64,000 nt of DNA from a virus. This document shows positions 3 to 46,454 of this stretch, in pieces. The stretch is taken from positions 11,330-75,329 of the IMG/VR virus record IMGVR_UViG_3300046455_000477. One strand, written 5' to 3'. The first letter of the stretch is position 1. Every line of letters starts with the position of its first letter. The notes beneath the pieces were generated by a model, which was not told where the DNA came from, did not search any database, and saw nothing but the letters and a program-made list of their open reading frames with translations. The translations under genes were made by a program, and so were the position numbers.

Positions 3-173
3 AGCGCGCTCGGCAACGGCACTGTCCGAACAGACAGTAGCACCCTGTCGGTCTATGAGTTGATCAACCTGTCGGTTGCCGAGGTGCGAGAGTTAAGCTT
101 CACCGGGGAGGACGCTGACTTTATCATTACGATCATCGGCTACTACTCAACTAATTCCTCTCTGTTTGGGTGA
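3..173 (+). CDS. Tail tube protein, C-terminal part (5' end outside window)
   Basis: Own translation, frame 3: SALGNGTVRTDSSTLSVYELINLSVAEVRELSFTGEDADFIITIIGYYSTNSSLFG*. Lies upstream of the chaperone and tape measure genes. Confidence 0.6.
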   Translation, partial: SALGNGTVRTDSSTLSVYELINLSVAEVRELSFTGEDADFIITIIGYYSTNSSLFG

Positions 174-177
174 TGGT

Positions 178-402
178 GTGAGCAAACAATTCAACACCCA
201 GATGCCTGAAGACATAGAACCTATTCTGCAATTCTTCGCTTACGACCATCTGCCGCCGCATCTGGCGGCGATCAGTCAACAATTCAGTCTTCTGGCCCAG
301 GCGGTGGTTGATGTTTTGCCGCGCAACCCCGAGCGCACGGTGGCGCTGCGCAAGTTACTGGAAGCGAAGGACGCCGCCGTTCGCGCGCGGCTCTATCAGT
401 AA
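178..402 (+). CDS. Small helical-hairpin phage protein (possible Acb2/Tad1-like hairpin)
   Basis: FFAYDHLPPHL...LPRNPERTVALRKLLEAKDAAVRA is a recurrent small phage protein pattern. Start is GTG 178 or ATG 202. Confidence 0.6.
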   Translation: MSKQFNTQMPEDIEPILQFFAYDHLPPHLAAISQQFSLLAQAVVDVLPRNPERTVALRKLLEAKDAAVRARLYQ

Positions 403-30193: not shown

Positions 30194-30201
30194 GAGAAAT
30201 T

Positions 30202-30689: not shown

Positions 30690-30718
30690 TTTGTAGGCTG
30701 ACACGGACTGGCGCGAAA
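30690..30718 (-). promoter_or_regulatory. Early promoter copy (TTTCGC-N17-TACAAA)
   Basis: Repeated motif upstream of a gene start. Confidence 0.7.
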
Positions 30719-30811
30719 GACCTTTTCCTAAAAATTCCTCAGGGGCGCAGCGCCTCCTGCAGTCGGGCTAGGCGACCGGGGGGCGGGTTCGGTAGGCTAG
30801 CCTCGGTGTCG

Positions 30812-31293: not shown

Positions 31294-31341
31294 GGTTCAG
31301 TCCTCCACTGGAGGGGAGCCGCGTGGCCCCCCTCCGATTGA

Positions 31342-32286: not shown

Positions 32287-32288
32287 CG

Positions 32289-32531
32289 TTAAATCTCCTT
32301 TTCATAAGTAATCTTGGTGACACCAAGAAGCTCCGCCTTGAGACGGAGCGCTGTCAGGCTTTGAGCCTTTGTCGGACCAAGGCGCAAGCTGCCGGCCTTG
32401 CCGACATAGTAGTAGTCAGATGCGCCAAAGCGGGTGAACACCCGCGTCCTGTTAGTGCGCTTGTTGGTCAGCTCAATGCTGCCACGAGCTAGCAGACCTT
32501 CGATGATGATATCTCGTTGAGTTTTAGCCAC
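32289..32531 (-). CDS. Hypothetical early protein
   Basis: CCGCCAGGAG leader and GTG 32531; YYYVGKAGSLRLG. Confidence 0.6.
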   Translation of the reverse strand: MAKTQRDIIIEGLLARGSIELTNKRTNRTRVFTRFGASDYYYVGKAGSLRLGPTKAQSLTALRLKAELLGVTKITYEKEI

Positions 32532-32580
32532 GGCGGGGTCTCCTGGCGGTAGCCTCGGGCGGGGTGCCCTCGGTAGCACC

Positions 32581-32610
32581 TTTCTAGGCGTTCCCTCGGG
32601 CTGAACGAAA
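32581..32610 (-). promoter_or_regulatory. Early promoter copy (TTTCGT-N18-TAGAAA)
   Basis: Variant of the repeated motif. Confidence 0.6.
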
Positions 32611-32626
32611 GATGTTTTCCGCGAAA

Positions 32627-32740
32627 CTATCTTTCGTTCCGCCGCTCCAGCCACTGACCAAGGAAAACCCCGATCAGCACGCCGAGGGCGACAAGTATGG
32701 CGGCGTCGAAGAGGTCGAAGGAGGCCCGAAGCGCGCTCAT
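32627..32740 (-). CDS. 37 aa single-pass membrane peptide (not in ORF track)
   Basis: Own translation MSALRASFDLFDAAILVALGVLIGVFLGQWLERRNER*; ATG overlaps the previous stop. Confidence 0.55.
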   Translation of the reverse strand: MSALRASFDLFDAAILVALGVLIGVFLGQWLERRNER

Positions 32741-32943
32741 GGCTCGTCCTCATTGAGCATGTCGTCCCACTCCTCGACGGTCATACCGGTCATGTAGAAC
32801 TCTCGCTCGCTGGCGGAGAGCTGCGGAAAAGCGTCCTGAATCAGGATACCACCTCGGGTGTAGGCGGCGACCTGTTCGACTGTGATGTTCAGCTCCATCG
32901 TGCGGACGAAGCCGGAGAAGGCGGAGCGGCGGGTGACGAGCAT
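32737..32943 (-). CDS. Conserved small phage protein
   Basis: LIQDAFPQLSASEREFYMTGMT.EEWD motif. Confidence 0.75.
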   Translation of the reverse strand: MLVTRRSAFSGFVRTMELNITVEQVAAYTRGGILIQDAFPQLSASEREFYMTGMTVEEWDDMLNEDEP

Positions 32944-32995
32944 CGGTACTCTCCTTGCAGCAGCGGGACCGGGGGACGCCCCCCGGTCGGGTCGG

Positions 32996-33670
32996 TCACA
33001 GGCTCCAGTCGCACTCCAGGCGGACGCGGTTCTCGTGGAACGCGGCCCACGCGACGCGGACGCTATTCTCCATCAGGTTGGTGCACTGGCTGGTAGACGC
33101 CGACAGCCAGCGGCTCTTGGCCATCAGCTCGGTGACGACCATCTCGTAGAGGTTGTCGAACCGCTCGCGGGTCGTGAGTGGCTGGCCGTTCTCGTTGGTC
33201 TTCTCGCCGAGGATCCCGACCCAGTGGGCGACGGCGTCGTAGACGTCGGCCTTGGCGGCGTTCTCGAAGTGCTTGTCGGCCCAGCCCATCACGGAGCACA
33301 GGCTGTTTCCGCGTGCCACTGCCTTCACAAGGTCGGCGTGGAGGCGCTGCAGATCGTCCTTGGCGACCGCGGACGCGGCGCTCAGGCGGCTCGGGAGCGT
33401 CGCCCAGGCGCGGTCCAGAGTCTCTGCGGCGATGAGCGGCCGGAGGTTGTCGATGGCCGACTGGAGAGTCTCGAGCGAATAGGTGGCGTTCTTCTCCATT
33501 GCTTCCTGGTAGTATCCGTCGGTCGTCGCCTTCGTCAGGATGCGGTGGAGGAGGGACAGTCGCTGGCGGGCGTCGCCCTTCACGGAGACGTCTCTCAGGA
33601 CGCTGAGGTCGGCGCGAAGGTCTGCGAGGGCGTTGGAGCGGCGCTCGGCACGGGGGATGCGATTGGACAC
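32996..33670 (-). CDS. Hypothetical helical early protein
   Basis: CCGCCAGGAG leader and GTG 33670. Confidence 0.65.
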   Translation of the reverse strand: MSNRIPRAERRSNALADLRADLSVLRDVSVKGDARQRLSLLHRILTKATTDGYYQEAMEKNATYSLETLQSAIDNLRPLIAAETLDRAWATLPSRLSAASAVAKDDLQRLHADLVKAVARGNSLCSVMGWADKHFENAAKADVYDAVAHWVGILGEKTNENGQPLTTRERFDNLYEMVVTELMAKSRWLSASTSQCTNLMENSVRVAWAAFHENRVRLECDWSL

Positions 33671-33694
33671 GGGGATTCTCCTGGCGGGTGGGGA

Positions 33695-33976
33695 TTAGAG
33701 GGTGACGAACTGGCAGGGTTGGCAGTACTGATACCCGCCTTTCGTCCATTTTCCGGCGAAACCGTCCTTGAGGCAAAAGCCGAGGGGAGCAAGGTTGTAG
33801 GCGAAGCCGCTCGGGATGTTCTTCCAGCCACGGTCGCGAAGCTCGCTCGCGATACGGGAGACCGCGATGCCCTGGGTCATGGAACCGTCCGCGAGCTTGA
33901 AGCTGTGGACGAGGCAGTCGAGGATGGCGTTCTGAAGACGGAGAGCGGCGGCAGACATCTTTTGGTCACGGGTCAC
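33695..33976 (-). CDS. Hypothetical early protein
   Basis: Leader motif and GTG 33976, downstream of a promoter copy. Confidence 0.6.
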   Translation of the reverse strand: MTRDQKMSAAALRLQNAILDCLVHSFKLADGSMTQGIAVSRIASELRDRGWKNIPSGFAYNLAPLGFCLKDGFAGKWTKGGYQYCQPCQFVTL

Positions 33977-34031
33977 GAGGGTAGCTCCTGGCGGGAGGGT
34001 TGGAGGCTCGGGCCACCGGCCCGACCCCAGC

Positions 34032-34060
34032 TTTGTAGGCCGATCACTCCTGCGGCGAAA
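34032..34060 (-). promoter_or_regulatory. Early promoter copy (TTTCGC-N17-TACAAA)
   Basis: Repeated motif. Confidence 0.7.
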
Positions 34061-34295
34061 GATCTTTCCCGAGAAATATTCTTTCGTCCTCGGCAGCTCG
34101 CGCCTCTCCGATCCACAGCGCCTGGAGCTGCGCATCACTGCGCCGCAGGCCATGGGATCCCGACGTCCCTGCGTCGGCATAGCAGATCGGGTTCCCCATC
34201 ACCCGGCATACCGGGCACTCCGGACAGATGCAGGCCTCTGTAGCACGACCGCAGACGTCGCACGGACCCGATCTCCAGTGTAGCATATCACTCAC
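34044..34295 (-). CDS. Small Cys-rich protein
   Basis: PCDVCG...CICPECPVC...NPICY; AGGAG RBS. Confidence 0.55.
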   Translation of the reverse strand: MSDMLHWRSGPCDVCGRATEACICPECPVCRVMGNPICYADAGTSGSHGLRRSDAQLQALWIGEARAAEDERIFLGKDLSPQE

Positions 34296-34343
34296 TCCTA
34301 GAAAAGGCCAGCCCCCCGGTTTGTCCGGGGGGCGTGACCGGGT

Positions 34344-35270
34344 TCAGCCGATGGACTTGCGGGCGGCTCCGCCCCCGACCTGACGGTCCAGGCCGATGTC
34401 CCGGCCGGACTGTGATCCGGAGTTGTAGGCGTTCCAGTCGACGCGAGCGGCCTCCTTCGCCTGGCGGCGCTGATAACCCTCGTACCAGCGGCGATCCCGG
34501 GCCTCGCGCTTCGCGCGCTCGGCGGGGGTCTCCTGCTTTACCGGCTCCACCGCCTTGCGGGCGTCGTACTCGGCGCGCCACTGAGCGGCCCGAGCGGCGG
34601 ACTCGGCCCGAGCGCGGGTCGTGGTTCCCGGAGCGTATCCGTAGCGGAGGTCGTTATTCAGGTCCTCCTCGTTCAGGTAGACGTCGGAGAGGACCAGCTC
34701 CGTTCCGTTGCCCCTGGGAACGTCGCCACGGCGAGCACGAGCCTCGGCGTCGGCCTTGGCCCGGAGGTCGGACAGGCGGCTCTGCAGCCGATCGCTGCAT
34801 CCGTTGAACCACGACTTCGTGGAGCGGTCCCGCTTGTCCTCGTAGGGGCAGAGGCGCTCCATTGTGGCCATCAGGTAGGAGTACATCTCCCGGACCACGA
34901 GGATGTTGACGCTGCGGCCGACCAGGCAGTGACGGCGACGCATCCGGAGCTTGCCGGTGCCGTTCGTGCGGCGGGCGAGGGTCTCGACCGTCCAGTGAGC
35001 GCAGAAGTTGGCCTCGGCGACCGCCTTCATCAGCGTGACCTGCCAGTCGGCGGTGGCGGCGATACTGCCGACATCCTTCTCGCGGGTGGCGTCGACCGAC
35101 GCGGGCTCGCTGTCGTCGATGGAGGACATCTCCAGGTTGTACTCGGCGAGGATCGCCTGCGCCTTCAGGGCGGCGGCGTTGGCCTCGTTTTCGTTGGAGT
35201 TATTGCCGGCGAGCGCGAGCAGCTTGCGGACGCGGGCGATGACGGACTCGGGGACGGCTGTCTGGGACAC
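34344..35270 (-). CDS. DUF2786-domain protein
   Basis: GTG 35270 after the leader motif; VIARVRKLLALA...NENEANAA..KAQAILAEYNL. Confidence 0.8.
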   Translation of the reverse strand: MSQTAVPESVIARVRKLLALAGNNSNENEANAAALKAQAILAEYNLEMSSIDDSEPASVDATREKDVGSIAATADWQVTLMKAVAEANFCAHWTVETLARRTNGTGKLRMRRRHCLVGRSVNILVVREMYSYLMATMERLCPYEDKRDRSTKSWFNGCSDRLQSRLSDLRAKADAEARARRGDVPRGNGTELVLSDVYLNEEDLNNDLRYGYAPGTTTRARAESAARAAQWRAEYDARKAVEPVKQETPAERAKREARDRRWYEGYQRRQAKEAARVDWNAYNSGSQSGRDIGLDRQVGGGAARKSIG

Positions 35271-35326
35271 GGCGGGTTCTCCTGGCGGGAGGTGGTGGGC
35301 TCCGGAGGCTCCCCCCGGACCCCAGC

Positions 35327-35356
35327 TTTGTAGCCGGAGAGTCCGGGGGAGGGAAA
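35327..35356 (-). promoter_or_regulatory. Early promoter copy (TTTCCC-N18-TACAAA)
   Basis: Repeated motif. Confidence 0.7.
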
Positions 35357-35388
35357 GACTTTTCCTGGGGTGAAGCAAGAATAATCCG

Positions 35389-35883
35389 TTAGCCAAACAT
35401 TCCGGGAAACTCGGCGCTCTCGACCTCGTCGGCGGCCTCGTCCAGCGCATCGGCGGCCTCCTCCAGCTCCTGGAGCTCGTCCCCGAGCTTCTCGGCCTCC
35501 GCCTCGTCCTCGCGGAGCTTCTCGACGACCCCCCGCATCTCCTCAGCAGCTGCGCGGCCAAAGTTGGCGATGTTGCTGGCGCGAGTGGCCCGCGACTCCG
35601 CCCCCCGCTTCCGGCCGCCACGCATCATCACGCCGACGGTGGCGACGACGTCCCGCAGCAGCTCCTCGGCCTCCATGGACAGTTCGGGCTTACACCCGTC
35701 GATGCCCTCCAGGATGTCGGCGGTCTCGCCCAGGGTCTGGATGCGCGGGGTCTCGGCGAGTCCTCCCTCGGCGTTGTCGACGATCTCACGGAGCTCCTCG
35801 GCGAGGGACTCGGTGTCGGCGTAGAAGATGTCAATGGCGTTCGGCACGGACGTCTTGATGGTCTCGAGTTTGTAGCGTGACAC
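35389..35883 (-). CDS. Acidic helical hypothetical protein
   Basis: AAGGAGA RBS; 164 aa, E/D-rich, ends EFPGMFG. Confidence 0.7.
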   Translation of the reverse strand: MSRYKLETIKTSVPNAIDIFYADTESLAEELREIVDNAEGGLAETPRIQTLGETADILEGIDGCKPELSMEAEELLRDVVATVGVMMRGGRKRGAESRATRASNIANFGRAAAEEMRGVVEKLREDEAEAEKLGDELQELEEAADALDEAADEVESAEFPGMFG

Positions 35884-35895
35884 GGTGGGCTCTCC

Positions 35896-36084
35896 TTAGG
35901 AAATTTGACCGGCGGCGCGAGCCTTGGCGACAGCGGCGGCGCTCGGGGCGCGACCGAAGAGCGCGGTCCAGTCGGCGACGTACTTGGCTTCGGTTTTCAC
36001 GGTATAGGTCTTGGCGGGCTTGGCGACAATGCCGAGGCGGGCGAGGCGGCGAGTGACGCGGTCGGGCTTGGAATCGTGGCTCAC
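35896..36084 (-). CDS. Small basic early protein
   Basis: AAGGAG RBS and GTG 36084. Confidence 0.55.
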   Translation of the reverse strand: MSHDSKPDRVTRRLARLGIVAKPAKTYTVKTEAKYVADWTALFGRAPSAAAVAKARAAGQIS

Positions 36085-36122
36085 GGCGGGCTCCTTGACC
36101 GGGGGGAATCCCCGACCCCCTC

Positions 36123-36151
36123 TTTGTAGGCTGACGTCGGGGATCCTGAAA
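36123..36151 (-). promoter_or_regulatory. Early promoter copy (TTTCAG-N17-TACAAA)
   Basis: Repeated motif. Confidence 0.7.
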
Positions 36152-36179
36152 GACTTTTCTTCGGGGTGAGGTAGGAATC

Positions 36180-37199
36180 TTAGACTGCCACCTCGCTCAC
36201 GCCGCCCTGCGGCCGGTCGATCGAGGATCGCCACCACCGCTTCCCCCCGCACTCGGCGCAGCGAAACCGCTGAGGGTTTGAGGTAGCTCTGCTTCCGTAG
36301 TCGCTGGCCTCCAACCACGCATGGGAACAGCCCGCAGCCGAGCCGTGGGATCGGGCCACCGCGTCGTGTACCCAGTGGCCTCGGCGGTGATCCACCGGTC
36401 CCCTGCGGTCGCCCTGCGCCCCTTGCGGGGGTGACGGGTGCGGCGGGTAGACGCGGGGGACGAGGTGAGTGACCGAGTGGTGGGGGGTCGTCCGGACGGA
36501 GCGACCGCCGCTGAACGTTCGCTTGGCGCTTATCTCCACCATGGTTGGACTGAACAGATCGCCCGTCAGCGCCCCGAGCAGAGCGATGATGTTCCGGAGG
36601 TCGGCCGAGCCCTCCTTCAGGATCGGGATGTTCAGGTCCGCGAGGTCGAACCCACCCTGAATCTTCAGGAGCCGCGCCGAGTGGTGATCCGCCAGGGAGC
36701 CCAGCAGCTCCGGCGGGAGTCGGTTAGCGGCCGAACCCCAGAGGTACTCGTCCGGATTCATTCGGATGATCTCTGCCATTCGGGCGCGATCCTCGGTTGC
36801 CCACGGAACGTGAAGCTTGTAGGCGACCGGCCAGATAACGGCTCCGGTCACCGTCGGCCCATCGGCAAAGCAGTAGACGTCGTCGCCGACGACCAGGTAG
36901 CCGACACGGGCGTCCATCGTTGGGCTTCCCGGATACCCGTTCGCTTTATTCCAGAACGCTCGGTTGTCGACCTCCATCCACGTCGCCTGATGAGGTGAGC
37001 GGACGGTTGGGGCGATGGCGGCGATCAGCTCCGGGTGATCGTGGATCACCTGCCCGATCAGCTCGGAGGCGCGACTGTCGAAGACGTACTTCTCGGCTCT
37101 GTGGACGGCTTTGATGCCGTCCGGATATCTGGTTCCGTACTTTCCACCAAAGAATATCGGACGGGTCGTGACCATGTCCGCGAGCGTCAGATTTGTCAT
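36180..37199 (-). CDS. Hypothetical protein with HRRGHW motif and C-terminal Cys cluster
   Basis: 339 aa; GGAGG RBS; HRRGHWVH...CSHAW...CAECGGKRWW. Confidence 0.65.
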   Translation of the reverse strand: MTNLTLADMVTTRPIFFGGKYGTRYPDGIKAVHRAEKYVFDSRASELIGQVIHDHPELIAAIAPTVRSPHQATWMEVDNRAFWNKANGYPGSPTMDARVGYLVVGDDVYCFADGPTVTGAVIWPVAYKLHVPWATEDRARMAEIIRMNPDEYLWGSAANRLPPELLGSLADHHSARLLKIQGGFDLADLNIPILKEGSADLRNIIALLGALTGDLFSPTMVEISAKRTFSGGRSVRTTPHHSVTHLVPRVYPPHPSPPQGAQGDRRGPVDHRRGHWVHDAVARSHGSAAGCSHAWLEASDYGSRATSNPQRFRCAECGGKRWWRSSIDRPQGGVSEVAV

Positions 37200-37247
37200 G
37201 CAAGGCCTCCATGCGGAAACCGGGGGGCAAGCCCCCCGGTCGTTTCC

Positions 37248-37826
37248 TCAGCCAGCCGGAGTGATCTCGATCCAGCCCTTGCGAACCGCCTTGCGGAGGG
37301 TGCGGCGAGCCTTGGAGCCGACGAGCTCGATGAACTCCCCGACGGTCATGCCAGACTTCAGGAGCGAGCGGCGGCGGAGGCTGTCGGAGCCGTCCCGACC
37401 GCTCCACGAGGTGGCGAGAACCGTGATGACGTCGTCGTGATCGGCGGTCTTGGCGCGGCTCGCGCCCTCCTCGTCGTCGTCGGCGTCGGCGTTCTCCATC
37501 TCGGCCTCGATTGCCTTCATCTCGTCCTCGAGGGTATTCACGTCGGCCTCGATGACGTCCAGCTCGGCCTTGATGGCGTCCAGCTCGGTTTCGTCGGCCT
37601 CGGCCTCGTCGTCACTGAGGTCTTCACAAGCGCAGAGGTTGCCCGACTCGTCGATGAAGAACTCGTCGGCGTGCTTGGAGAGGAAAGCCTCGATGAAGTC
37701 GCGAAGCTGTTCGGCCTTTTGGCGAGAGAGGGTCGACGCGGCGGGCGTCCGGTCCTCGTTGTGCTCGCAGATCGTCTGAACGAGGGACACGAGAACGGGC
37801 TTGGAAGCGGTGCTGAGGTCGTACAC
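37248..37826 (-). CDS. Protein with acidic coiled coil and C-terminal GMTV domain
   Basis: Leader motif and GTG 37826. Confidence 0.65.
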   Translation of the reverse strand: MYDLSTASKPVLVSLVQTICEHNEDRTPAASTLSRQKAEQLRDFIEAFLSKHADEFFIDESGNLCACEDLSDDEAEADETELDAIKAELDVIEADVNTLEDEMKAIEAEMENADADDDEEGASRAKTADHDDVITVLATSWSGRDGSDSLRRRSLLKSGMTVGEFIELVGSKARRTLRKAVRKGWIEITPAG

Positions 37827-37876
37827 GGCGAAGTCTCCTGGCGGAGGGTTAGGGGCCAAACCGGCCCGGTAGATGA

Positions 37877-37905
37877 GTTCTAACCGTCCTCGGGAGACCG
37901 CGAAA
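37877..37905 (-). promoter_or_regulatory. Promoter (TTTCGC-N17-TAGAAC)
   Basis: Same -35 element and spacing as the early promoter family. Confidence 0.55.
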
Positions 37906-38371
37906 GCAAATTCTGCGAAAGAATATTTCGTTCCTGGGGGTTGGTTAGGACGGCGGATATCTCCCGCCAGCTCCAGTTTGCCGGACCACCCTTCCAAACT
38001 CGGCCGCTGGCGGGAACATTATTCAGACCCCCGAGGGCGAGCGCCGCCGCGTGAGCTCCGCTCACTATGTATAGTTGGTCGACGGGGTCGCCGCGCCGAG
38101 GTCCTCCGTCGTGTCGGCGGCGCACAGCGATCCATACGATCCCTCCGTGGCGGACGCGGCGGCTGATCCAGGCGACCTGGAGCGGGCGGAGGTCCACGGT
38201 GAAGCTGCTCGTCTCCTTGAACTCAATCCAGAACTCCGTTCCTGCGCTGCAGGAGTTCGAGTCCGGGATGCCGGGGGTTACTCCGCCGCTCTCCACAGCC
38301 ACCCAGTCGAAATCGCGAAGCTGTTGGCGAAACAGTCCTCGCAGTCCTCCGTCGCGCTTGGTGGCCGTCAG
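37880..38371 (-). CDS. VRR-NUC / PD-(D/E)xK nuclease (resolvase-like)
   Basis: VES...PGIPD...FWIEFK...LRPLQVAW; start uncertain. Confidence 0.8.
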   Translation of the reverse strand: MTATKRDGGLRGLFRQQLRDFDWVAVESGGVTPGIPDSNSCSAGTEFWIEFKETSSFTVDLRPLQVAWISRRVRHGGIVWIAVRRRHDGGPRRGDPVDQLYIVSGAHAAALALGGLNNVPASGRVWKGGPANWSWREISAVLTNPQERNILSQNLLSRSPEDG

Positions 38372-38550
38372 ATCAGCTCCTTCTCCTTGGCGAGCCAAAC
38401 GGGTATCACCATGACACCCTGTTCCTTGTCCCACTCGCACTGAGACTTGGGGAGCCACACGAGCCGGAGGCCGTCCGAGAACCTCCAGGCTTTCTCGGTC
38501 TCGACCGTTATCTCTCCGGCTATGTCGACGAGAACCTTTTCCTTGGCCAT
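38368..38550 (-). CDS. Small SH3-like protein
   Basis: ETEKAW...VWLPKSQ...IPVWLAKEKEL. Confidence 0.7.
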   Translation of the reverse strand: MAKEKVLVDIAGEITVETEKAWRFSDGLRLVWLPKSQCEWDKEQGVMVIPVWLAKEKELI

Positions 38551-40496
38551 CACGCGAGAACCTTTCTGTAGTCTGTCTTAGCCTTGCCCCAGGTGCTGCC
38601 AACTTCTAGGTCCACGGTCACGGGCATCACGAGCTTGACCGCGTCGATCATCAGCTCGCCTATCGTCTCCACCTCTCGGGCAGTACCCACCGACGCCCCG
38701 ATCTCGTCGTGTAGGGTGACCAGGGGGACGATACCGGCCCGATGGATAGCGACCATGGCCCGCTTCACCTGTCGCGCGGCGGAACCCTGAATAACGCTGT
38801 TGCCTGCCTGATAGGCGAAGGCGCGCTCCAGCGGCTGATCGGGCCACCGCCGCTCAGCCTCCTCCCGGTAGGCAAATCCCCCGGGAACGCGGTGCTTCTT
38901 CGGTTGCCAGAGCGGATAGTGCCGACGAGCGCCGTCTATCATCCGAACGAACCCGTTCACCTTGGCCTGATGCTCGGCGCACTTGGATATTCCGGAGATG
39001 TACGGGATACGGGCGTGATACAGATTCCACAGCTCCGCCGCCTCCTCCTCGGGTTTGTTAAGGTGAACGGCGAGCAGCTTTGCCGACATTCGGTAGGTCA
39101 GTCCCTGGTTCAGGTCCTTGGCCTCCCTTCGGGTCAGGCCGAGGACCTTTGCCCCGAGGGAGTGGAAGTCCGGGTCCGGGTCCGTTCGGTAGTAGCGGAC
39201 GACGCCCTCGATGTCCCCCATCTCTATCCCGAGGCGCTTGGCGAGGTTCCTGCACTTGTAGGCATAGTGGACGTTGAGGCGCGGCTCCTGACTCTTGAAG
39301 TCGGCGCTCAGCCAGTGCTGGCCATTCTCCGGTAGAAAGGCGTTGCGGACCAGCGGAGCGAGGACCTCGTCCCGGCTCGGCATCTGCTGGAGCGGGGGAT
39401 TGGAGTACGAGAAGCGGTGCGTCACTGCCCTGAGCTGACGTATCTCGGCGTGGACGCGGCCCATCGTCTGGTAGTCCCGGATGTAGAACCCTAGGAACTT
39501 CTCGTGAAGATCGTGGAGCTGCCTGACGCGCCGGACCTTCCTGCCGAGCGGGTGAGTGAGCCTGTCCAGCCACTGAGCCTGAAACGATGGAGCGTTCGTC
39601 TTTGCGGTGCGGGGATACGCGATACCCTCCTCGTCGAACAGCTTGGACAGCCGCTCGGCGGAGCGCAGGTCCTCGATCGTGCAGCCACCGCGCCAGGGGA
39701 CCGTGATGGTGGACATAACCTCCTCCTCCATCCGCCGAACCTGATCCATTGCCGCGTTCACGCCATCCATGGAAACCCTGATGCCGCGCCGACGCATGGC
39801 GTTCGTTACTGGGTAGAGATCCATCTCGGTGCGGTAGGCTTCGACCGTGTCCTCCTCCACAATCGTCGGCCAGAGAACCCTGCAGAGCCGTAGTGTGGAG
39901 GCCGCGTCCTGCTCGGCGTAGGGACCGACGTAGCGCGCCGGTAGACGGTGAATACCCGCCTTGACGTTCTTGTGGATTCCTGCGGACGCGGCTGCCTCGC
40001 GCAGAAGCGTCTCGTCCTTCCCGAGGATACCGGCGCGGGCGCAGCATGCGTCCAGGCTGTAGGACTGGTGGTTCTCGTCGGCGATGAAGGCCATCGTACC
40101 GCCATCCTCGGCCCGCTCCGGCCAGACGCTGCATCCGTGAGTCTGGAGCCATCCCATGTCGTACGATATGTTGAAAAAGTGGACGCGACAGTGCCGAAGA
40201 AGGTGCTCAACCCAGGCGATAACCTCCTCCATGGGGCGGTTCTCCGTTTCCGGGTGCCTCACCGGAACGTAGATGGCCTGATCACCCCAGGCCACCGACA
40301 CGCCGCAGAGGTGTCCGTTACGGTCCACCCAGCCCGGACCCCGCTCCTGGGCGAGACCCCGGTCGTAGGTCTCCGTGTCCAGGCCGATGTCTATGCCCGA
40401 CAGCATGGGAAGCGGACCCTGGGGCGGCTTCCAGCTCGACTCAGGGACGAACAGGGACCGCTGCCCCTCCGCCCACAGGGTTCGGGTGGACGTCAC
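38550..40496 (-). CDS. polA: DNA polymerase family A with 3'-5' exonuclease
   Basis: LDTET (ExoI), FNISYD, YAEQDA, RFSYSNPPLQQMP, ADFKSQEPR (A), RREAKDLNQGLTY (B), IQGSAA, LHDE (C); likely GTG start at 40496. Confidence 0.95.
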   Translation of the reverse strand: MTSTRTLWAEGQRSLFVPESSWKPPQGPLPMLSGIDIGLDTETYDRGLAQERGPGWVDRNGHLCGVSVAWGDQAIYVPVRHPETENRPMEEVIAWVEHLLRHCRVHFFNISYDMGWLQTHGCSVWPERAEDGGTMAFIADENHQSYSLDACCARAGILGKDETLLREAAASAGIHKNVKAGIHRLPARYVGPYAEQDAASTLRLCRVLWPTIVEEDTVEAYRTEMDLYPVTNAMRRRGIRVSMDGVNAAMDQVRRMEEEVMSTITVPWRGGCTIEDLRSAERLSKLFDEEGIAYPRTAKTNAPSFQAQWLDRLTHPLGRKVRRVRQLHDLHEKFLGFYIRDYQTMGRVHAEIRQLRAVTHRFSYSNPPLQQMPSRDEVLAPLVRNAFLPENGQHWLSADFKSQEPRLNVHYAYKCRNLAKRLGIEMGDIEGVVRYYRTDPDPDFHSLGAKVLGLTRREAKDLNQGLTYRMSAKLLAVHLNKPEEEAAELWNLYHARIPYISGISKCAEHQAKVNGFVRMIDGARRHYPLWQPKKHRVPGGFAYREEAERRWPDQPLERAFAYQAGNSVIQGSAARQVKRAMVAIHRAGIVPLVTLHDEIGASVGTAREVETIGELMIDAVKLVMPVTVDLEVGSTWGKAKTDYRKVLA

Positions 40497-41509
40497 TTCG
40501 TTTCTCCACCCGTCCGCGTCTTTATCCACTGGATCGCCGCCTCCCTCCAGTCCGTGTGAACGACGTCCCCGCAGAGCATCAGTGCTGTGTTCCACTTCTT
40601 CTCGCGTATCGCATCGTGCACGAGGGACACGGGAACTAGCAGGTTCCTGAAGAGGGCCGACCGTCCGGGGGGCTCCCCGCTGGGCTTCTCCAGCCAGGCG
40701 TCCAGCTCCTGCGCAAACGTGACCGGATAGCAGTCAGCAAACAGCGGTGATGCAGCCACCCGCCCGTCCGCGTAGAGATCCCCCCGGTCATCGTGCCGGT
40801 CGTAGAGGTGGAGCGTGTTCTCGTAGGCGTGGAGGTTGTGACTGAACTGATTGAAGCACCCGACAACGGTCCCGAGCCGCCAGGCCAGATACTCCTGCAG
40901 CACCGTGAAGTGAACCGCGTTCGCGCCGTAGGCTCCCCATATAGCGTCGTTGGATCGGCAGCAGACGGTGAGATCCAGAGCGGAAACGCCGCCCTTCTCC
41001 ATTATCCTCAGGTAGATCGTCGTGTTGCAGGGGATATCCGGGGGGGCGGAAACGCCGGATGCAGTGGAGTCCAGGCTCGGATCGTACATCTGTATCACTG
41101 CGCGGCGGGAGCCAGGATCGTTTCGCAGGTGATCGACGACCCACTCTATCTGGTCGAAGTCCTCGCAGCCGCGCCCGACCCAGTTTCGCCAGCGGTGACC
41201 GTAGGCTCCGTGCAGAACTCCGTTGTCCGCGAACCGTTGGCCGAAGTCGCTGACGTATCGGTCCAGGAACGCCGCGTCACGCCTTCCGGCCAGCATCCAC
41301 ATCGCCTCGAAGAGGTGGAAGAATGGGTTGGCTCGCCGCTTGCGATTGAACAGAACCCGCTCCGTGGGCCTCCGGTATATCGTTAACACCGGCTTCGGAT
41401 AGACGATGGCCCGACCGTTTCGGGTGTTCTCCCACTTCCCCGAAACGAGAAGCTCCTCCATCATTACGGAGAAAACGTCGTTGACGTTTCGTTGAGTAAA
41501 CGTACTCAT
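40493..41509 (-). CDS. Thymidylate-synthase-fold enzyme, probable dUMP hydroxymethylase
   Basis: NPFFHLFEAMWMLAGR, YGHRWR, DIPCN (catalytic Cys), RSND..WGAYGAN (Asn indicating dUMP specificity), NLHAY; neighbours are hypermodification genes. Confidence 0.8.
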   Translation of the reverse strand: MSTFTQRNVNDVFSVMMEELLVSGKWENTRNGRAIVYPKPVLTIYRRPTERVLFNRKRRANPFFHLFEAMWMLAGRRDAAFLDRYVSDFGQRFADNGVLHGAYGHRWRNWVGRGCEDFDQIEWVVDHLRNDPGSRRAVIQMYDPSLDSTASGVSAPPDIPCNTTIYLRIMEKGGVSALDLTVCCRSNDAIWGAYGANAVHFTVLQEYLAWRLGTVVGCFNQFSHNLHAYENTLHLYDRHDDRGDLYADGRVAASPLFADCYPVTFAQELDAWLEKPSGEPPGRSALFRNLLVPVSLVHDAIREKKWNTALMLCGDVVHTDWREAAIQWIKTRTGGETK

Positions 41510-41603
41510 GACTCCATTCCTCTTCAACCCGGTTACTCTACGCCTCCACGGTCTCATGACTCCATTCCTCTCCAACCCGGTTACTCTACGCCTCCACGGT
41601 CTC
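41505..41603. repeat. 48-bp tandem duplication
   Basis: 41505-41552 and 41553-41600 are identical except for one base (ttcaa/tccaa). Confidence 0.95.
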
Positions 41604-42287
41604 CTGCGCTAGGACTGATCCGTAGAGGCGGACAACCTGAGAGGCGTGACTGCTCCTGCCTATCGTCGACCATATGTGGACACACGCCCGGTGCTCGATA
41701 TCACTGCAGCGTCGGACAACGCTACAGGAGCTCATTGGTATGGTTTCCGCGAGCCTGTCCGCAATACCAACAACGTCTTGTTCGTACCAAGCAACGGTCA
41801 GTGTTTCACCGGAGGCAACCTCCACGACGTCCCCGCAGCGCGGCGGCTCCTTCTCCTCGCAGTATCGGAGGACGTCGCTCAGGAATACTCCAACGGCTAG
41901 CCGAACCAGCGGATCGTTGTACTCGTGGTTCCGGCCGCTCGGGTGCGGTATCGTTGCCCAGGTTCCCTTCCACACGAGCGGGGGGTTCCTAAATCCAAAG
42001 GCGTTGGTGGCGTCGGTTCCAACGAGTATCACGATACGGTTCCGTATCATCGTCTCAAGCCACTCCGCACGCTCGCGTGCTCCGGCCCGGTAGTCGCGGG
42101 GGAGCACCCTGTCCGTCAGAAGGTTGTTCCGCTGCGTGCGCTGCAGCCAGTTCTCCATGCTGATGCCGGAGACGGTGTTCACCATGCTCCACAGACGATA
42201 CCCGGCCGACTTCCGATCGTGAGGATGGAAGGCCATCCTAGGGTCGCTGCTCTGGGGATTATTGATGCCAAGCAGGTATGGTCTCAC
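41586..42287 (-). CDS. Uracil-DNA-glycosylase-fold protein with an extra C-terminal domain
   Basis: LLGINNP...SAGYRLW...RNNL...VILVG...TIPHPSGRN..YND (UDG motif-B-like HPS), followed by a second module CGDVVEVASGETLTVAW. Confidence 0.65.
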   Translation of the reverse strand: MRPYLLGINNPQSSDPRMAFHPHDRKSAGYRLWSMVNTVSGISMENWLQRTQRNNLLTDRVLPRDYRAGARERAEWLETMIRNRIVILVGTDATNAFGFRNPPLVWKGTWATIPHPSGRNHEYNDPLVRLAVGVFLSDVLRYCEEKEPPRCGDVVEVASGETLTVAWYEQDVVGIADRLAETIPMSSCSVVRRCSDIEHRACVHIWSTIGRSSHASQVVRLYGSVLAQETVEA

Positions 42288-42853
42288 AGTATGACTCCCT
42301 GTTCTCGCAGCCAGACGACGGCGGTCTCCCTGCAGCCCTCGGTTACGTGAACGCCCATCCGACGGAACCGAGGTGGATGAAGCCGAAGCGTCCGGTGGCG
42401 GTCGGCCGTTGTCTTAGGGTTTAGTGGTGACGTGTTGCCCTTGGCCGAGCGGCGAGCGACGACGCCGTCCAAGCACTCCTGCAGCGTTAGATTGAAGTAG
42501 AACAGACGAACATCGAAGCCCTCCCTGTGAAGGTCCGCTGTTCTGTTCTGCTCACAGCTCAGTATCAGACCCTCGAAGAACACGTCGTAGAGTCCGTGCA
42601 GCTCTCTGGCAAGCTCGAACCACTTGTCGACGCCGCTGATAGTGTCGCACCCCCCGGTCGCGCTCTCGTAGTGCCCAAGTAGAGCGATGCCACGCTGACC
42701 AATACTCAGTGGCTCCCTCGTGTAATACAGGGGCTGCTTTCGCCCTTTAGTGTGAAATGGCTCGGCTGGAGCGTAGACTCCCTCGGAGTGGAGGACACGC
42801 TTCGCGACCGTAGTCTTTCCGGAACCCGATGTGCCACGAACTGATAGTATCAC
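42284..42853 (-). CDS. P-loop nucleotide kinase of base-hypermodification clusters
   Basis: VRGTSGSGKTT, LGHY....GGCDTI and FFEG motifs. Confidence 0.8.
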   Translation of the reverse strand: MILSVRGTSGSGKTTVAKRVLHSEGVYAPAEPFHTKGRKQPLYYTREPLSIGQRGIALLGHYESATGGCDTISGVDKWFELARELHGLYDVFFEGLILSCEQNRTADLHREGFDVRLFYFNLTLQECLDGVVARRSAKGNTSPLNPKTTADRHRTLRLHPPRFRRMGVHVTEGCRETAVVWLREQGVIL

Positions 42854-42911
42854 CGGCTGTCTCCTAGTTTGAGCCGGAGCTATAGTAGCGCGTCCATTCC
42901 TCCTGGGCTAG

Positions 42912-43844
42912 TCAAACCCTGGAGGTGAACCTTCGGCGGGTTCCCTGGCCCGTTACCCGAACCCTGATGTACTTGAAGTACTCGCAGAGCGTGTGCTCGA
43001 TGTCCCGCATCTCCAGAGCCAGGTGGCTGCTGGGCCAGTGCCTCGTGAGCCTGGAGAGCTCCAGCAGCTCCCTCATCTCGGCCACGGTTTGCTCACTTTT
43101 CAGCTTTACGTTGTACTGGTACTTCATCGTCGGTTTGCGAGGGTTTCTCACCTGTCTGTCTGACAGGTAATTCAGTCCTCGCTGAGCGCCGGGACCGGGG
43201 TTCGCCCACGTCATGATGTCCGGCGCATTCTCCAGCAGAGCCGTGTGACGAAGGTCGGTCGTAATCTCGTAAGCCAGAAACCCGCCCAGGAAGGGAATCT
43301 CCGCCAGGAGGTTCGTGAAACTCTCCAGATTGTAAAGTCCATCCCTCACCCTATCCGCTGTATCCCGCCACTTGCCCGCGTTGTGGAAGTCGGCGCACAG
43401 CCGGGATACTCCGTTCAGCTTGTCCATGCCATCCGGGCTGCGTATCATGTAGGAGCCTGTCACCCACGGACCATCCGGATAAACGCGACGTATCGGGGCC
43501 GACAGGTCGTGGGCCCGACCACCCTCCAGGAAGTGCTCCCACGGCACCCGGTTCGTCATAAGATCGGGCTGCTGGAAGACGATCTGGCCGATCTCCGTTT
43601 TGTTAAACCACCGAAACACTACCGTTGCCAGAAGCACCTCCGGTGTGTCCCGAAGCCTGTTCCGGACGTTCTCCCGGAACCAGACGGTGGTCGCGTCCAG
43701 TTCCCGATAAACGTTGGTGAAGCGGTTCTCCAGAAGGATGGGATCCTCCGTCCACGGCGGCGGGAGACCGCTCCGGCGGCGCAGGTACACGTCGTGGCGC
43801 TCTCTCGCGAACGCGAAGAAGTCGTTGACCCGCTCCGGCTTCAT
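42912..43844 (-). CDS. aGPT-Pplase1 / 5-hmdU DNA kinase helical-domain family protein
   Basis: FARERH.VYLRR..G.PPPWTEDPIL...RFTNVYRELD, FRWFN, GGFLAYEITTDL, GPGAQRGL and DIEHTLCEYFKY motifs. Confidence 0.88.
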   Translation of the reverse strand: MKPERVNDFFAFARERHDVYLRRRSGLPPPWTEDPILLENRFTNVYRELDATTVWFRENVRNRLRDTPEVLLATVVFRWFNKTEIGQIVFQQPDLMTNRVPWEHFLEGGRAHDLSAPIRRVYPDGPWVTGSYMIRSPDGMDKLNGVSRLCADFHNAGKWRDTADRVRDGLYNLESFTNLLAEIPFLGGFLAYEITTDLRHTALLENAPDIMTWANPGPGAQRGLNYLSDRQVRNPRKPTMKYQYNVKLKSEQTVAEMRELLELSRLTRHWPSSHLALEMRDIEHTLCEYFKYIRVRVTGQGTRRRFTSRV

Positions 43845-43952
43845 GGAGTACCCCCAGAATAGGTGCCCCCCGGCTGTCTCGTCTGGCACGAGGACCGGGG
43901 GGCGTGCGGGCGAGCCGTGCTGCCAAGGCCAAAGCTCGCCTACGCTGCGGAG

Positions 43953-44654
43953 CTAGGCGGTTGCCGTCTCCTCTTCGTCAGCCTCAGCAGCCTCCGGACG
44001 AGGCGGCGGAGGCGGGTTCAGAACGATGAAGCCCTTGTCGTGCATAGCCTCCAGGTAGCGTGCTGCGACACCAGCCTTGACCGCTTCGGTCGCCGTCATG
44101 CCCTGCTTCAGCTTCAGGAAGCGACCGGCTCGGTTGGAGTCCGCCCGATACGGGAGGTTCTCGGCACCGTAGGGCCTGCCCTCCTTGTCCGCGCCGAAGT
44201 TTATGCTCGCCGTCGGGTCGACGTTGCCGGTTCTCGGCGTGGACGTGGTTTCGTTGGTTGTGCCTGCTTCGCTCATGCTCCTAGTCTCCTTTCTGCCGTT
44301 ATTCAATGCGGTCCTGTCTGCCTTCACGATATCCAGGATCTCACCGAGCGTGTCCGGTGGATCCGTTGCCCGCTCGCACAGTAGCCTCCATATATCCGGA
44401 GCCGACTTGTCGCGAGCCAGTCTTGCCTCCGTTACGCCGAGGTGGACCATCGCTTCCTGCAGTATCTGGTTCTGATAACCGGCGGCACGCATCAGCTTCG
44501 TCCACTCCAATCGGTTGTACAGTCTCAGCAGATCATCCGGACTCTCGATGATCGCGTCTCCGTACTGAACGACCGGGTGAAGGAACGCATCCCTTTCGCT
44601 CTGGAACTTAAGGATGGCGCCGAACCCGCCGCGTGTCACTGCTATACAGACCAT
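43953..44654 (-). CDS. Hypothetical protein with C-terminal GMT paralogous domain
   Basis: 233 aa ORF downstream of a promoter; the C-terminal part may have its own start (MSEAG). Confidence 0.6.
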   Translation of the reverse strand: MVCIAVTRGGFGAILKFQSERDAFLHPVVQYGDAIIESPDDLLRLYNRLEWTKLMRAAGYQNQILQEAMVHLGVTEARLARDKSAPDIWRLLCERATDPPDTLGEILDIVKADRTALNNGRKETRSMSEAGTTNETTSTPRTGNVDPTASINFGADKEGRPYGAENLPYRADSNRAGRFLKLKQGMTATEAVKAGVAARYLEAMHDKGFIVLNPPPPPRPEAAEADEEETATA

Positions 44655-44663
44655 AACTCGCTC

Positions 44664-44692
44664 ACTCTAGCCTCATCGTAATTAAAAGCAAA
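44664..44692 (-). promoter_or_regulatory. Promoter for the modification/polymerase operon (TTTGCT-N17-TAGAGT)
   Basis: Sigma70-like spacing in an AT-rich gap. Confidence 0.55.
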
Positions 44693-44730
44693 GAGGTTTT
44701 CCCGATATCGTGGAAATAAAAATCGGTAAT

Positions 44731-46263
44731 CTATATCTTGTAGTGGAGCGCCGTCTGGGGGGAAACCACGATGAGCTCCTCCTTTGCTCGTGTAACCCCG
44801 ACGTAGAAGACGCGGTGCTCCGCATCCGGGTTGGTCGCGGCCTCCCTGTGAGTGCGGAAAGCCCGATCCCTCACCAGAACGACGCGATCGGCCTCTCCGC
44901 CCTTGGAGCCATGGATCGTGGACAGCCGTATGCGCGGCTCCCTCGTCAGTCGCTCACCGTTGGCGCGGCACGCTCTGATGTAGGTCACGTCCTGCTCCGG
45001 AATACGGTTGAGGGAGTCGAACCACTCCCTGTCGGTCCGGAGCCCGCCGTCCCTCCGCAGATCATCCATGCTCACCATCTCATCGGGATGGAACCGGGGA
45101 AGCTTCTTGAAGCCTCGGTCCAGTCCTCGCCCGCTGACGATAAGGTCGTACGGACCACTGATGATGTCCGAAACCCGCTGCGAAACACCATTGCGAAGCC
45201 TCTCCCAGCACACGATAGCGTCCAGGGTGGACCGCTTCACCGACGGGCTCCCGTCCCGACTGTAGAGTCTCCCTGCGGCCCGCAGCTGATTGGCTACGTT
45301 GTCCAGGTAGGGACGCCGGTTCCGCGTCAGCACCATCGTCGTCCCGTCCTCCCCCCGGTCCCCGTTCTTGCTGAAGTCAATGGCAGCGAGGGACGGAGCG
45401 CGGCGGGCGATACCCTCCCCCTCGCGAGCGTTCCATACTTTTGGTCGGCGGTGGCTGACCTGCCCGATGATCCGGTTCGCAACCGATTGAACCCGGCGCG
45501 GGACGCGGTAGGACTGCCCGAGAACGACGACGCTACCAAGCATATCGATCATGGTGTCGGTATCCGCTCCAGCCCACTGATAGATGGACTGGTCGTCGTC
45601 CCCCGCTATGGTGACCGGTATGTCGTCCACAGCCATCGCCCGGATGACGTCCCACTGGATGAGGCTGAGGTCCTGAGCCTCGTCCACGAGCAGTGCCTCC
45701 AGCTTCGGGTATCGCTTCTGCTTCACGAACTGCTCCAGCAGGTCGGTAAAGTCCAGCATCCTGTGGGCATCCTTGTACTCCCTCATCCCCCGGCTGAACC
45801 GCTCCACGCGGCTCCAGTCCAAACCGTCGCTGTCCTCGTTGTAGAGCTGCCGCAGGGGGATGCGGCGGACGCGGGCCAGGTTATCCATGAAGAGCATGCG
45901 GTCCCCCGGCTCGTAACCGCTCCAGGTTCCCTCGTCCATCCGGAAGTGCCCAGTGATCCGCTCGCCTATCCAGTCCCCAAACTCAGCCATCTTACGGCCC
46001 TCGAGAATACTTCCCGCCGAGGCACCGATCTGGCGCATGCACAGCGAGTGGATGGTCCGGAAGTAGGGCAGGGCGTCCTTCTCCAGCCGAAAGTCCACCG
46101 CGACGCGGCCCGCAGCCTCCTCGGCCGCTCGGCGCGTGAAGGTGAGAAACCCGATGCGATCCGGGGGGACGCCCGCGTCCAGGTGGCCCCGGAGGGTGTC
46201 CAGCAGGGTCGTTGTCTTGCCCGTTCCGGGCGGGCCGAGGAGTATCGTCCAGGGGCGGGTCAT
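44731..46263 (-). CDS. UvrD/Rep-like SF1 helicase
   Basis: GPPGTGKT, FTRRAA, TIHS, VDEAQD, GDDDQSIY, QSYR, STIHGSKGGE and YVGVTRA motifs. Confidence 0.93.
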   Translation of the reverse strand: MTRPWTILLGPPGTGKTTTLLDTLRGHLDAGVPPDRIGFLTFTRRAAEEAAGRVAVDFRLEKDALPYFRTIHSLCMRQIGASAGSILEGRKMAEFGDWIGERITGHFRMDEGTWSGYEPGDRMLFMDNLARVRRIPLRQLYNEDSDGLDWSRVERFSRGMREYKDAHRMLDFTDLLEQFVKQKRYPKLEALLVDEAQDLSLIQWDVIRAMAVDDIPVTIAGDDDQSIYQWAGADTDTMIDMLGSVVVLGQSYRVPRRVQSVANRIIGQVSHRRPKVWNAREGEGIARRAPSLAAIDFSKNGDRGEDGTTMVLTRNRRPYLDNVANQLRAAGRLYSRDGSPSVKRSTLDAIVCWERLRNGVSQRVSDIISGPYDLIVSGRGLDRGFKKLPRFHPDEMVSMDDLRRDGGLRTDREWFDSLNRIPEQDVTYIRACRANGERLTREPRIRLSTIHGSKGGEADRVVLVRDRAFRTHREAATNPDAEHRVFYVGVTRAKEELIVVSPQTALHYKI

Positions 46264-46454
46264 CTCCACATACTCATTCTCTTTACTCTCTCGCAACCTT
46301 CCGGACAAGGGTCTTCCTCCACTCTGCTCTCCTCATCGTTCTTTGTGGATTGGACGTGCGGTTTGGACCTATCGTAGGACAAGTATGGATTATACTCGTG
46401 CGGATTTCCCCTGAAGGGGCGGCGTCTCTCCTTCAGCGTATAATTCTTAGCCAT
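46260..46454 (-). CDS. Hypothetical small protein
   Basis: Overlaps both neighbours in operon fashion. Confidence 0.4.
   Translation of the reverse strand: MAKNYTLKERRRPFRGNPHEYNPYLSYDRSKPHVQSTKNDEESRVEEDPCPEGCERVKRMSMWR

Follow-up and report, generated by a model that had tools for sequence, protein, structure and literature searches.

We analyzed a stretch of viral DNA of 64,000 nucleotides (nt), hereafter the window, which covers bases 11330 to 75329 of the 75,329-bp IMG/VR record IMGVR_UViG_3300046455_000477, and found that a run of minus-strand genes in it (40493 to 43889) is a minimal form of a known thymidine hypermodification system, without an amino-acid:DNA transferase (AADT). The four genes of this module encode a protein of aGPT-Pplase clade 1 (aGPT-Pplase1), a P-loop kinase, a free-standing protein with a uracil-DNA glycosylase (UDG) fold, here called a mini-UDG, and an enzyme with a thymidylate synthase (TS) fold. 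Together, they are the smallest version known of the gene set that replaces thymine by 5-hydroxymethyluracil and phosphorylates it in DNA. The overall explanation that we consider best, and to which we give an even chance, is a minimal thymidine-replacement module in which the mini-UDG would serve as a sanitizer and aGPT-Pplase1 would carry out the chemistry that follows the kinase.

An initial annotation of the window had listed five co-oriented genes here (those above plus PolA) and had read them as a module of the 5-hydroxymethyldeoxyuridine (5-hmdU) type. All five lie on the minus strand where it had placed them, and the reading is supported by matches to Pfam family PF18723, to a hidden Markov model (HMM) of M6-type kinases and to the MilA-like TS fold. 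Specifically, the aGPT-Pplase1 gene (42912 to 43889; 325 aa) belongs, as had been proposed, to the family whose current Pfam name is HMUDK_hel (PF18723), with an E-value of 2.5e-44 and 152.2 bits (cut-off 25) over profile positions 3 to 276 of 281; a six-frame search of the genome gave 151.9 bits for the same gene. Its end had been set at 43844, which proved to be an internal alternative start (Met16) in an open reading frame (ORF) that reaches 43889.

The P-loop kinase (42284 to 42853; 189 aa; Walker A motif RGTSGSGKT) appears to be a homologue of the 5-hmdU DNA kinases of the M6 gp54 type, and its stop codon overlaps the start of the mini-UDG gene (GTGA). It matches phrog_800 (1.2e-15), gave no match to PF18748 at E ≤ 0.01, and aligns end to end with LKO4 gp16 (the M6 gp54 orthologue) and with the kinases of Bordetella phage MW2 and Stenotrophomonas phage Sonora, sharing with all three the Walker A motif, GHYE..GG.DT and EG. 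When these three kinases, of which that of Sonora is PF18748-positive, were combined into an HMM of M6-type 5-hmdU DNA kinases, the window kinase was the sole significant match in the six-frame genome (E = 1.1e-6).

The TS-fold enzyme (40493 to 41575; likely start Met23 at 41509) carries its catalytic Cys in DIPCN and matches PF00303 (74.3 bits) and phrog_5131 (1.6e-85). Its best relative in the Protein Data Bank (PDB) is the CMP 5-hydroxymethylase MilA (5jnh; E = 2.4e-17), which ranks ahead of all thymidylate synthases, and it falls far under every NCBIfam thymidylate synthase equivalog cut-off. The sequence GAN aligns to SD of MilA, so that an Asn, the base-selecting residue for uracil, stands at the position of the MilA Asp, in agreement with the dUMP-type Asn noted earlier. 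The enzyme is 36 to 42% identical to TS-like proteins of related loci, and at the DNA level it matches genes of M6-like, Bordetella and PhiJL001 phages whose annotation reads either thymidylate synthase or deoxyuridylate hydroxymethyltransferase. On this evidence, it is probably a dUMP hydroxymethylase. The fifth gene, PolA (38550 to 40595; 681 aa), encodes a family A DNA polymerase (PF00476, 1.7e-39; phrog_17, 1.2e-87) without a fused UDG domain and is syntenic with the module across 11 related loci.

A family of free-standing mini-UDGs

The UDG-fold protein (41586 to 42287, minus strand) has 233 aa and an AlphaFold model with a predicted local distance difference test (pLDDT) score of 88. 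Residues 1 to 148 (41844 to 42287) form the mini-UDG domain, with a pLDDT of ~97, while residues 149 to 233 and the stop codon (41586 to 41843) make up a C-terminal extension in which the model shows a small beta domain and, after it, two helices (strands 154 to 192, helices 196 to 226, pLDDT 74 to 90). This extension of 85 residues is limited to the closest relatives (P0005 and P0006), has no Pfam or PDB sequence match and gave short BFVD matches to phage proteins of 55 to 70 aa. Searches of viral and metagenome contigs with P0001 or P0006 returned no loci for close relatives of the extended protein.

By sequence, the UDG-fold protein scores 22.5 bits against PF03167, under the gathering cut-off of 24.3, and its relatives range from no match to 26.9 bits, which places the family at the edge of that model. 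By structure, it has the UDG fold: VIA-align of residues 1 to 148 gave Z = 11.0 to human TDG (3uo7_A; 142 aa, root-mean-square deviation 3.4) and Z = 10.8 to both E. coli MUG (1mug) and a family-4 UDG (4zbx). The top structural rows all belong to the UDG superfamily and include the UDG domain of the phiLo polymerase (9qhs_A; Z = 9.9), and a Foldseek search of the model put SMUG1 at the head of the list (E = 2.3e-3). PDB sequence searches with the single protein or a profile retrieved no solved UDG, SMUG1 included, and phrog_12275 matched at 1.4e-22.

An exhaustive HMMER search recovered 607 cluster representatives (50% identity) at E ≤ 1e-3, among which we found no solved or assayed member. 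Because nearly all members have 137 to 200 residues and match query residues 2 to 145, we describe the family as mini-UDGs. Their consensus is GMNNP...RxN...PHPSGRNxxYND, and the window protein has G7-I-N-N10-P11 as motif 1 and P114-H115-P-S-G-R119-N as motif 2. Of 59 aligned sequences, 58 have G7, 51 have N10 (with Asp in 5 more), 58 have P11, 59 have R53, 58 have N55, 57 have H115, 57 have S117 and 40 have R119 (with Leu in 13). N10-P11 and H115-P116-S117, which represent the Asp/Asn before Pro of UDG motif 1 and the His-Pro-Ser of motif 2, are conserved in 51 to 58 of the 59 members. N10 would correspond to the water-positioning Asn of MUG, TDG and SMUG1, H115 to the His of the UNG/SMUG1 HPS motif, and the Arg to the wedge. 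No conserved Cys or other AADT-type nucleophile occurs in the family, and the conserved Asn, His and Arg point to a hydrolytic glycosylase rather than a transferase.

The window protein shares the UDG fold with SMUG1, TDG and MUG (families 3 and 2), and its GINNP and HPSGRN can be set beside the motif strings of the known enzymes, GMNPG/GINPG for motif 1 and HPSPRN for motif 2 of SMUG1. However, it has ~150 residues instead of 165 to 250, its motif 1 is longer by one residue, and its sequence is not significantly similar to that of any solved UDG. The UDGs fused to SPO1-/SP15-like family A polymerases of YerA41 and phiLo likewise share the fold and belong to hmdU-derived genomes, whereas the UDG of the window is a free-standing protein of ~150 residues encoded two genes upstream of PolA, with SMUG1/MUG-like rather than family-4-like motifs. 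UDG domains of the YerA41/phiLo type have been proposed to remove dU before or during replication (PMC13697223).

Cultured homologues of the mini-UDG were found in ~40 M6/YuA-like Pseudomonas phages, Bordetella phage MW2, PhiJL001 and T4-like rhizobiophages. In LKO4 and MW2, the mini-UDG gene lies just after the ribonucleotide reductase (RNR) genes and upstream of a cluster that encodes the AADT, a pyridoxal phosphate (PLP) enzyme, a radical S-adenosylmethionine (rSAM) enzyme, the kinase and Pplase1. The 59-sequence alignment was too diverse for finding loci. A pattern scan of IMG/VR yielded 36 mini-UDG loci, 13 of them in records at least 90% complete. HMUDK_hel was present in 19 of the 36 records, a TS-like gene in 20 and an AADT in 7; among the 13 more complete records, the numbers were 11, 10 and 2, respectively. 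For reference, the background frequency of kinase-bearing (5-HMUDK) contigs is ~8e-4 (PMC8989533).

The gene order of the window, UvrD-Pplase1-kinase-mini-UDG-TS-like-PolA, recurs in ~10 metagenomic phage loci, in which the mini-UDG gene ends no more than ~350 nt before the TS-like gene. In L015 (9569 to 11395), the mini-UDG and the TS-like hydroxymethylase are in one frame with no stop codon between them, which represents either a natural fusion or a lost stop; it is the sole clean in-frame case, as a second apparent UDG-TS fusion (L040) is degenerate and may be a frameshift.

The variable inserts of the relatives sit between the Pplase1 and mini-UDG genes, and the window has none of them. 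TAGT-type glycosyltransferase inserts were found in L011 (4614 to 5465), L013 (7792 to 8580), L016 (6365 to 7285 and 7848 to 8714), L017 (12648 to 13463) and L021 (10453 to 11265). The two members that were scanned, those of L011 and L016, match the TET-associated glycosyltransferase family PF20691. The family as a whole lies within kinase/Pplase1/TS clusters without an AADT, which suggests that the uncultured phages with such inserts may carry sugar-modified hmdU. Other inserts encode an NTP transferase (L016), an amidoligase (L010 and L040), an AADT (L012 and L036) or families without assignment of ~330 aa (270 to 350 aa). A further insert, in L018 (7618 to 9444), is a 608-aa ORF with radical-SAM and SPASM domains, which adjoins the kinase gene and shows weak BLAST similarity to the kinase family; two genes may be fused here, or their frames may overlap.

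The mini-UDG is therefore the constant part of these clusters and the tailoring enzymes are the variable part, which is the opposite of what would be expected of a transferase substitute. Because it keeps its place beside the TS-like gene whether an AADT, a TAGT, an rSAM gene or nothing else accompanies it, we regard the mini-UDG as a core gene and not as a replacement transferase. The initial annotation had proposed that the UDG-fold gene occupies the AADT slot; this is not supported, since mini-UDG and AADT genes coexist in LKO4 (gp09 beside gp12), MW2, L012 and L036, the tailoring inserts lie elsewhere, and mini-UDGs also occur in genomes without HMUDK_hel.

The 5-NedU cluster of M6/YuA comprises gp51 (AADT), gp52 (PLP), gp53 (rSAM), gp54 (kinase), gp55 (aGPT-Pplase1) and a dUMP hydroxymethylase. 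The kinase, aGPT-Pplase1 (~35% identity) and TS-like genes of the window are homologous to its counterparts, PolA is nearby, and a mini-UDG homologue (LKO4 gp09, 28% identity) lies in the same early region. The window differs in having no AADT, PLP or rSAM genes, in the order Pplase1 then kinase, and in its mini-UDG gene, which lies directly before the TS-like gene instead of ~7 kb upstream and encodes the extra C-terminal domain.

The clade 1 protein and the search for tailoring enzymes

As far as homology can tell, an AADT or another known tailoring enzyme is absent from the complete genome. PF18724 (AADT) and PF18757 (Nmad5) gave no six-frame match at E ≤ 10 anywhere in the genome, and a custom AADT HMM, run with filters off over 1,081 stop-to-stop frames, reached a best E-value of only 0.6; over the same frames, a clade 1 HMM returned a single gene, that of aGPT-Pplase1. 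In Pfam screens of 13 window ORFs scanned singly and 66 further ORFs, including those in the 11.3 kb outside the window, no PLP, rSAM, FAD, acetyltransferase, glycosyltransferase or amidoligase family was found. The initial annotation had recognized no standard transferase, PLP, rSAM or glycosyltransferase gene in the early arm, and this now extends to all 75,329 bp. The mini-UDG was also considered as a homologue of the Sonora Nmad5 protein, which has the same position, and was rejected (BLASTP against Sonora gp43, E = 6.4). The final base is not readable from sequence and could be hmdU or 5-phosphomethyl-dU (5-PmdU), regenerated thymine or a new small adduct.

The initial annotation overlooked a catalytic-type Cys-Glu motif in aGPT-Pplase1. 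Across 17 sequences, C302-E303, K306 and R309 are invariant within the motif EHTLCEFDKYERVR, and the EHTLCE of the window protein compares with ETVLCKWKS of AADTs, in which E-T-x-x-C is catalytic. HMM alignments (E = 0.02 to 0.2) pair EHTLC with ETVLC as well as the upstream GPW/GxF helix. The model of aGPT-Pplase1 (pLDDT 87) gave Z = 9.9 to PaMx11 gp46/PUGT (8z2n_B) over 225 residues (ranges 22..321 and 8..265) and Z = 10.5 to the queuine salvage enzyme QNG1; counting back from the range ends, C302 falls within one residue of Cys247 of PaMx11 gp46. The protein is a helix-hairpin-helix (HhH) glycosylase-like paralogue of the amino-acid:DNA transferases.

In PaMx11 gp46, Cys247 is the nucleophile that attacks C6 of the base, and Glu243/Thr244 hold a metal (PMC11472151); equivalent Glu/Thr and Cys roles are described for Pplase2 of Acinetobacter phage SH-Ab 15599 (PMC13458397). 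aGPT-Pplase1 resembles PaMx11 gp46 and YuA Pplase2 in its HhH-like fold and in a Glu-x-x-x-Cys in the same C-terminal helix (PMC11472151, PMC13458397). It differs from them in its Pfam family, in having no recognizable amino-acid pocket residues of the solved transferases, and in the residues after the Cys, which are E-F-D-K instead of K-W-K. Because these residues are acidic in aGPT-Pplase1 and Lys in AADTs, an amino-acid carboxylate is an unlikely co-substrate.

Lee et al. reported that SP10, phiW-14, M6 and ViI virions contain no hmdU, which is converted before packaging to the hypermodified base or to canonical thymine, and assigned no enzyme to the thymine branch (PMC8989533). Judged by its motif and predicted fold, aGPT-Pplase1 is a better candidate than the mini-UDG, and the only other one, for any chemistry after phosphorylation, and clade 1 might catalyze a thymine-forming or small-nucleophile reaction.

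Two known systems resemble the window in having no detected clade 2 enzyme or AADT. Bacillus phage SP10 gp186 combines a kinase with a clade 1 Pplase, with no clade 2 enzyme detected (Table 3, PMC5889632); compared by description and not by sequence, it differs in that these domains are fused rather than separate, an rSAM gene is present and glutamyl-thymidine is made. PhiJL001, an Alphaproteobacteria phage (Keylargovirus), has the closest cultured aGPT-Pplase1 (gp19, 46.5% identity) along with PolA, a mini-UDG-like match and a hydroxymethylase of the TS-like kind, whereas no AADT scored above cut-off. It differs in an annotated glucosyltransferase (gp22) inside the cluster (L005, 9004 to 11188), and its DNA may carry glycosylated hmdU. 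No kinase homologue was found in its 18.8-kb locus, gp16 having been discarded as a candidate for want of a Walker A motif.

Genome context and neighboring genes

The record ends in a 127-bp direct terminal repeat, so we take the genome to be complete and circularly closed. Contigs (Logan) identical to the window over 38500 to 46400 are present in four rhizosphere/soil metagenome runs, in which the contig joints have short sides only. None of the four is an RNA run, and such assembled contigs carry no information on base modification. The source is a complete soil/rhizosphere phage. The early/replication arm consists of minus-strand genes at ~26.2 to 54.5 kb of the window, and the rest of the genome, including the 11.3 kb outside the window, is structural. 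In addition to the module genes, the Pfam scans identified helicases, an AEP primase, a class II RNR, an exonuclease, HNH endonucleases, domains of unknown function (DUFs), Nudix, topoisomerase IB and structural proteins.

A gene for another protein of 233 aa (43953 to 44654, minus strand), which we do not count as part of the module, lies immediately upstream of it. It has no Pfam, PHROG or NCBIfam match, a low-complexity center and a Pro/acidic tail, and homologues in only 8 other clusters, all of which are without Pfam domains. Relationships with AADT (hhalign E = 0.28) and with Sonora gp38 (E = 0.22) were both rejected. The flank of the module is formed by a syntenic UvrD-type helicase gene (44731 to 46308, minus strand; PF00580, 2e-29), whose product is 36 to 50% identical to that of the same-place gene in 11 related loci.

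On the other side, a minus-strand stretch of the early arm (26200 to 38600) gave many PHROG matches annotated as HNH endonuclease, a count of matches and not of separate ORFs, as well as DUF-only proteins (DUF932, DUF6011, DUF2786/DUF7168 and Pam3 gp33/gp34-like). The ORF at 37880 to 38602, which has no family, has homologues (39 to 43% identity) in L030/L031, where they adjoin the mini-UDG gene, and in L021/L022, where they lie downstream of PolA; as conservation is limited to approximately the last 160 residues, translation probably begins within the ORF. A single ORF of 1,177 codons, which follows the portal region in the late operon, crosses the circular junction from window positions 61942 to 64000 to record base 1602, and Pfam screens of the ORF set that contains it found NUDIX and type IB topoisomerase domains. 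A PEP-CTERM motif match (PF07589, 1.4e-7) was found within the plus-arm ORF set.

Proposed pathway, alternatives and significance

In the pathway that we propose, the TS-fold enzyme would convert dUMP to 5-hydroxymethyl-dUMP, PolA would incorporate hydroxymethyl-dU into DNA, and the P-loop kinase, by homology with M6 gp54, would phosphorylate 5-hmdU in the polymer to 5-PmdU. The mini-UDG would most likely act in trans beside the polymerase, flipping out and excising uracil misincorporated for hmdU. Precedent comes from the SPO1-/SP15-like polymerases of T-modified phages, whose active UDG domain leaves modified T untouched but removes dU in front of the replication fork, and from the many metagenomic phages that encode a UDG in trans (PMC13697223). 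We read the mini-UDG as an in-trans uracil sanitizer because the polymerase-fused domains do this work and that of phiLo is among its structural matches. Finally, aGPT-Pplase1, with its Glu(−4)/Cys motif kept and its pocket different, could turn 5-PmdU into thymine or a small non-amino-acid adduct. A bolder form of the proposal, that the kinase and aGPT-Pplase1 constitute a self-sufficient post-replicative pathway based on Cys-C6 chemistry (5-PmdU to thymine or a small adduct) and that the mini-UDG represents a new UDG family whose task is to keep uracil out of hmdU-based genomes, is tentative, and we think it rather more probably wrong than right.

Several observations weigh against this proposal. 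The Pfam scans described above found no dCMP deaminase, dUTPase, dTTP/dTMP hydrolase or dNMP kinase, which are usual in hmdU phages. The residue after Asn-Pro, which gates C5 in UNG, is variable in mini-UDGs (H, Q, Y, L, V or R), and substrate choice is thus not readable from it. The link with hmdU is not absolute, as T4-like rhizobiophages also carry a mini-UDG and two complete genomes (G020 and G033) have one without HMUDK_hel, kinase or TS-like gene; the occurrence of the mini-UDG without kinase or Pplase in G020 and G033, and probably in the rhizobiophages, argues for a general DNA-level role. For aGPT-Pplase1, the profile homology to AADTs is weak (the HMM E-values of 0.02 to 0.2 given above), hhalign of the clade 1 and AADT alignments was not significant (E = 0.034), a Z of ~10 on an all-helical protein lies within the range against which the tool warns, and glycine transfer in vitro did not require M6 gp55 (clade 1) (PMC8989533). 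An unrelated enzyme could also be concealed among six early ORFs of 140 to 365 aa to which no Pfam family was assigned.

The T4-like rhizobiophages L042, L046 (Sinorhizobium phage phiM9) and Rhizobium phages RHph_Y68 and RL38J1 have two genes of the TS type besides the mini-UDG, namely, a canonical ThyA and a divergent TS-like gene (Td.2), and no AADT above the family cut-off.

The strongest competitor, which we nevertheless consider unlikely, is that the pathway stops early, leaving virion DNA with 5-hmdU that is partly 5-PmdU, and that aGPT-Pplase1 is a DNA-binding, base-flipping helper of a split kinase. The genome has no tailoring enzyme, the Pfam name of PF18723 describes it as the kinase's helical domain, and in SP10 gp186 aGPT-Pplase1 is fused to a kinase whose domain alone is active; in vitro, DNA that had only been phosphorylated was protected from NcoI (PMC8989533). 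However, a passive domain would hardly be expected to keep an invariant Cys-Glu where AADTs have their nucleophile, and among kinase-carrying phages no analyzed virion retains hmdU or 5-PmdU (PMC8989533).

That an unrecognizable transferase, encoded by a family-less early ORF (e.g., 36180 to 37199, 28617 to 29714, 37880 to 38602 or 43953 to 44654) or by the host, completes hypermodification strikes us as improbable. The six family-less early ORFs leave room for it, and related clusters do hold the unassigned families of 270 to 350 aa between Pplase1 and mini-UDG, but none of the ORFans of the window is homologous to these families, and the 233-aa neighbor, with the composition described above, is not enzyme-like. 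Slightly less credible still is a remnant module or one with another function, with canonical DNA and a TS-fold enzyme that acts as an ordinary thymidylate synthase. The enzymes with which hmdU phages typically deplete dTTP and supply dUMP are indeed missing from the phage, and Illumina contigs from four runs are identical to the window over the module stretch. Yet all four module genes are intact and retain their catalytic motifs, the closest relative of the TS-like protein is a hydroxymethylase rather than a TS, and a 5-hmdU DNA kinase would have no substrate if there were no hmdU. Least probable of all is the possibility raised in the initial annotation, that the UDG-fold protein flips out 5-PmdU and itself catalyzes the conversion to an undescribed base in place of an AADT: its gene is translationally coupled to that of the kinase and lies before the hydroxymethylase gene, the proteins nearest to it in fold (TDG and SMUG1) act on 5-substituted uracils, hmU among them, its C-terminal domain is specific to the lineage and no other transferase was found, but its family has the residues of a hydrolytic glycosylase, persists alongside AADT, TAGT or rSAM genes and is present in complete genomes without kinase or Pplase genes.

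Thymidine hypermodification pathways account for the resistance of phages to restriction and are a source of enzymes that can install chemical groups on DNA. Published schemes leave two gaps, namely, the job of the ubiquitous clade 1 aGPT-Pplase and the enzyme that restores thymine from hmdU ahead of packaging. Both questions find their simplest setting in a natural module of four genes that has no clade 2 transferase, and the one described here recurs in soil samples, with several AADT-less relatives being complete or nearly so. The strong link between mini-UDG and hydroxymethylase suggests a general quality-control step for T-replaced genomes.

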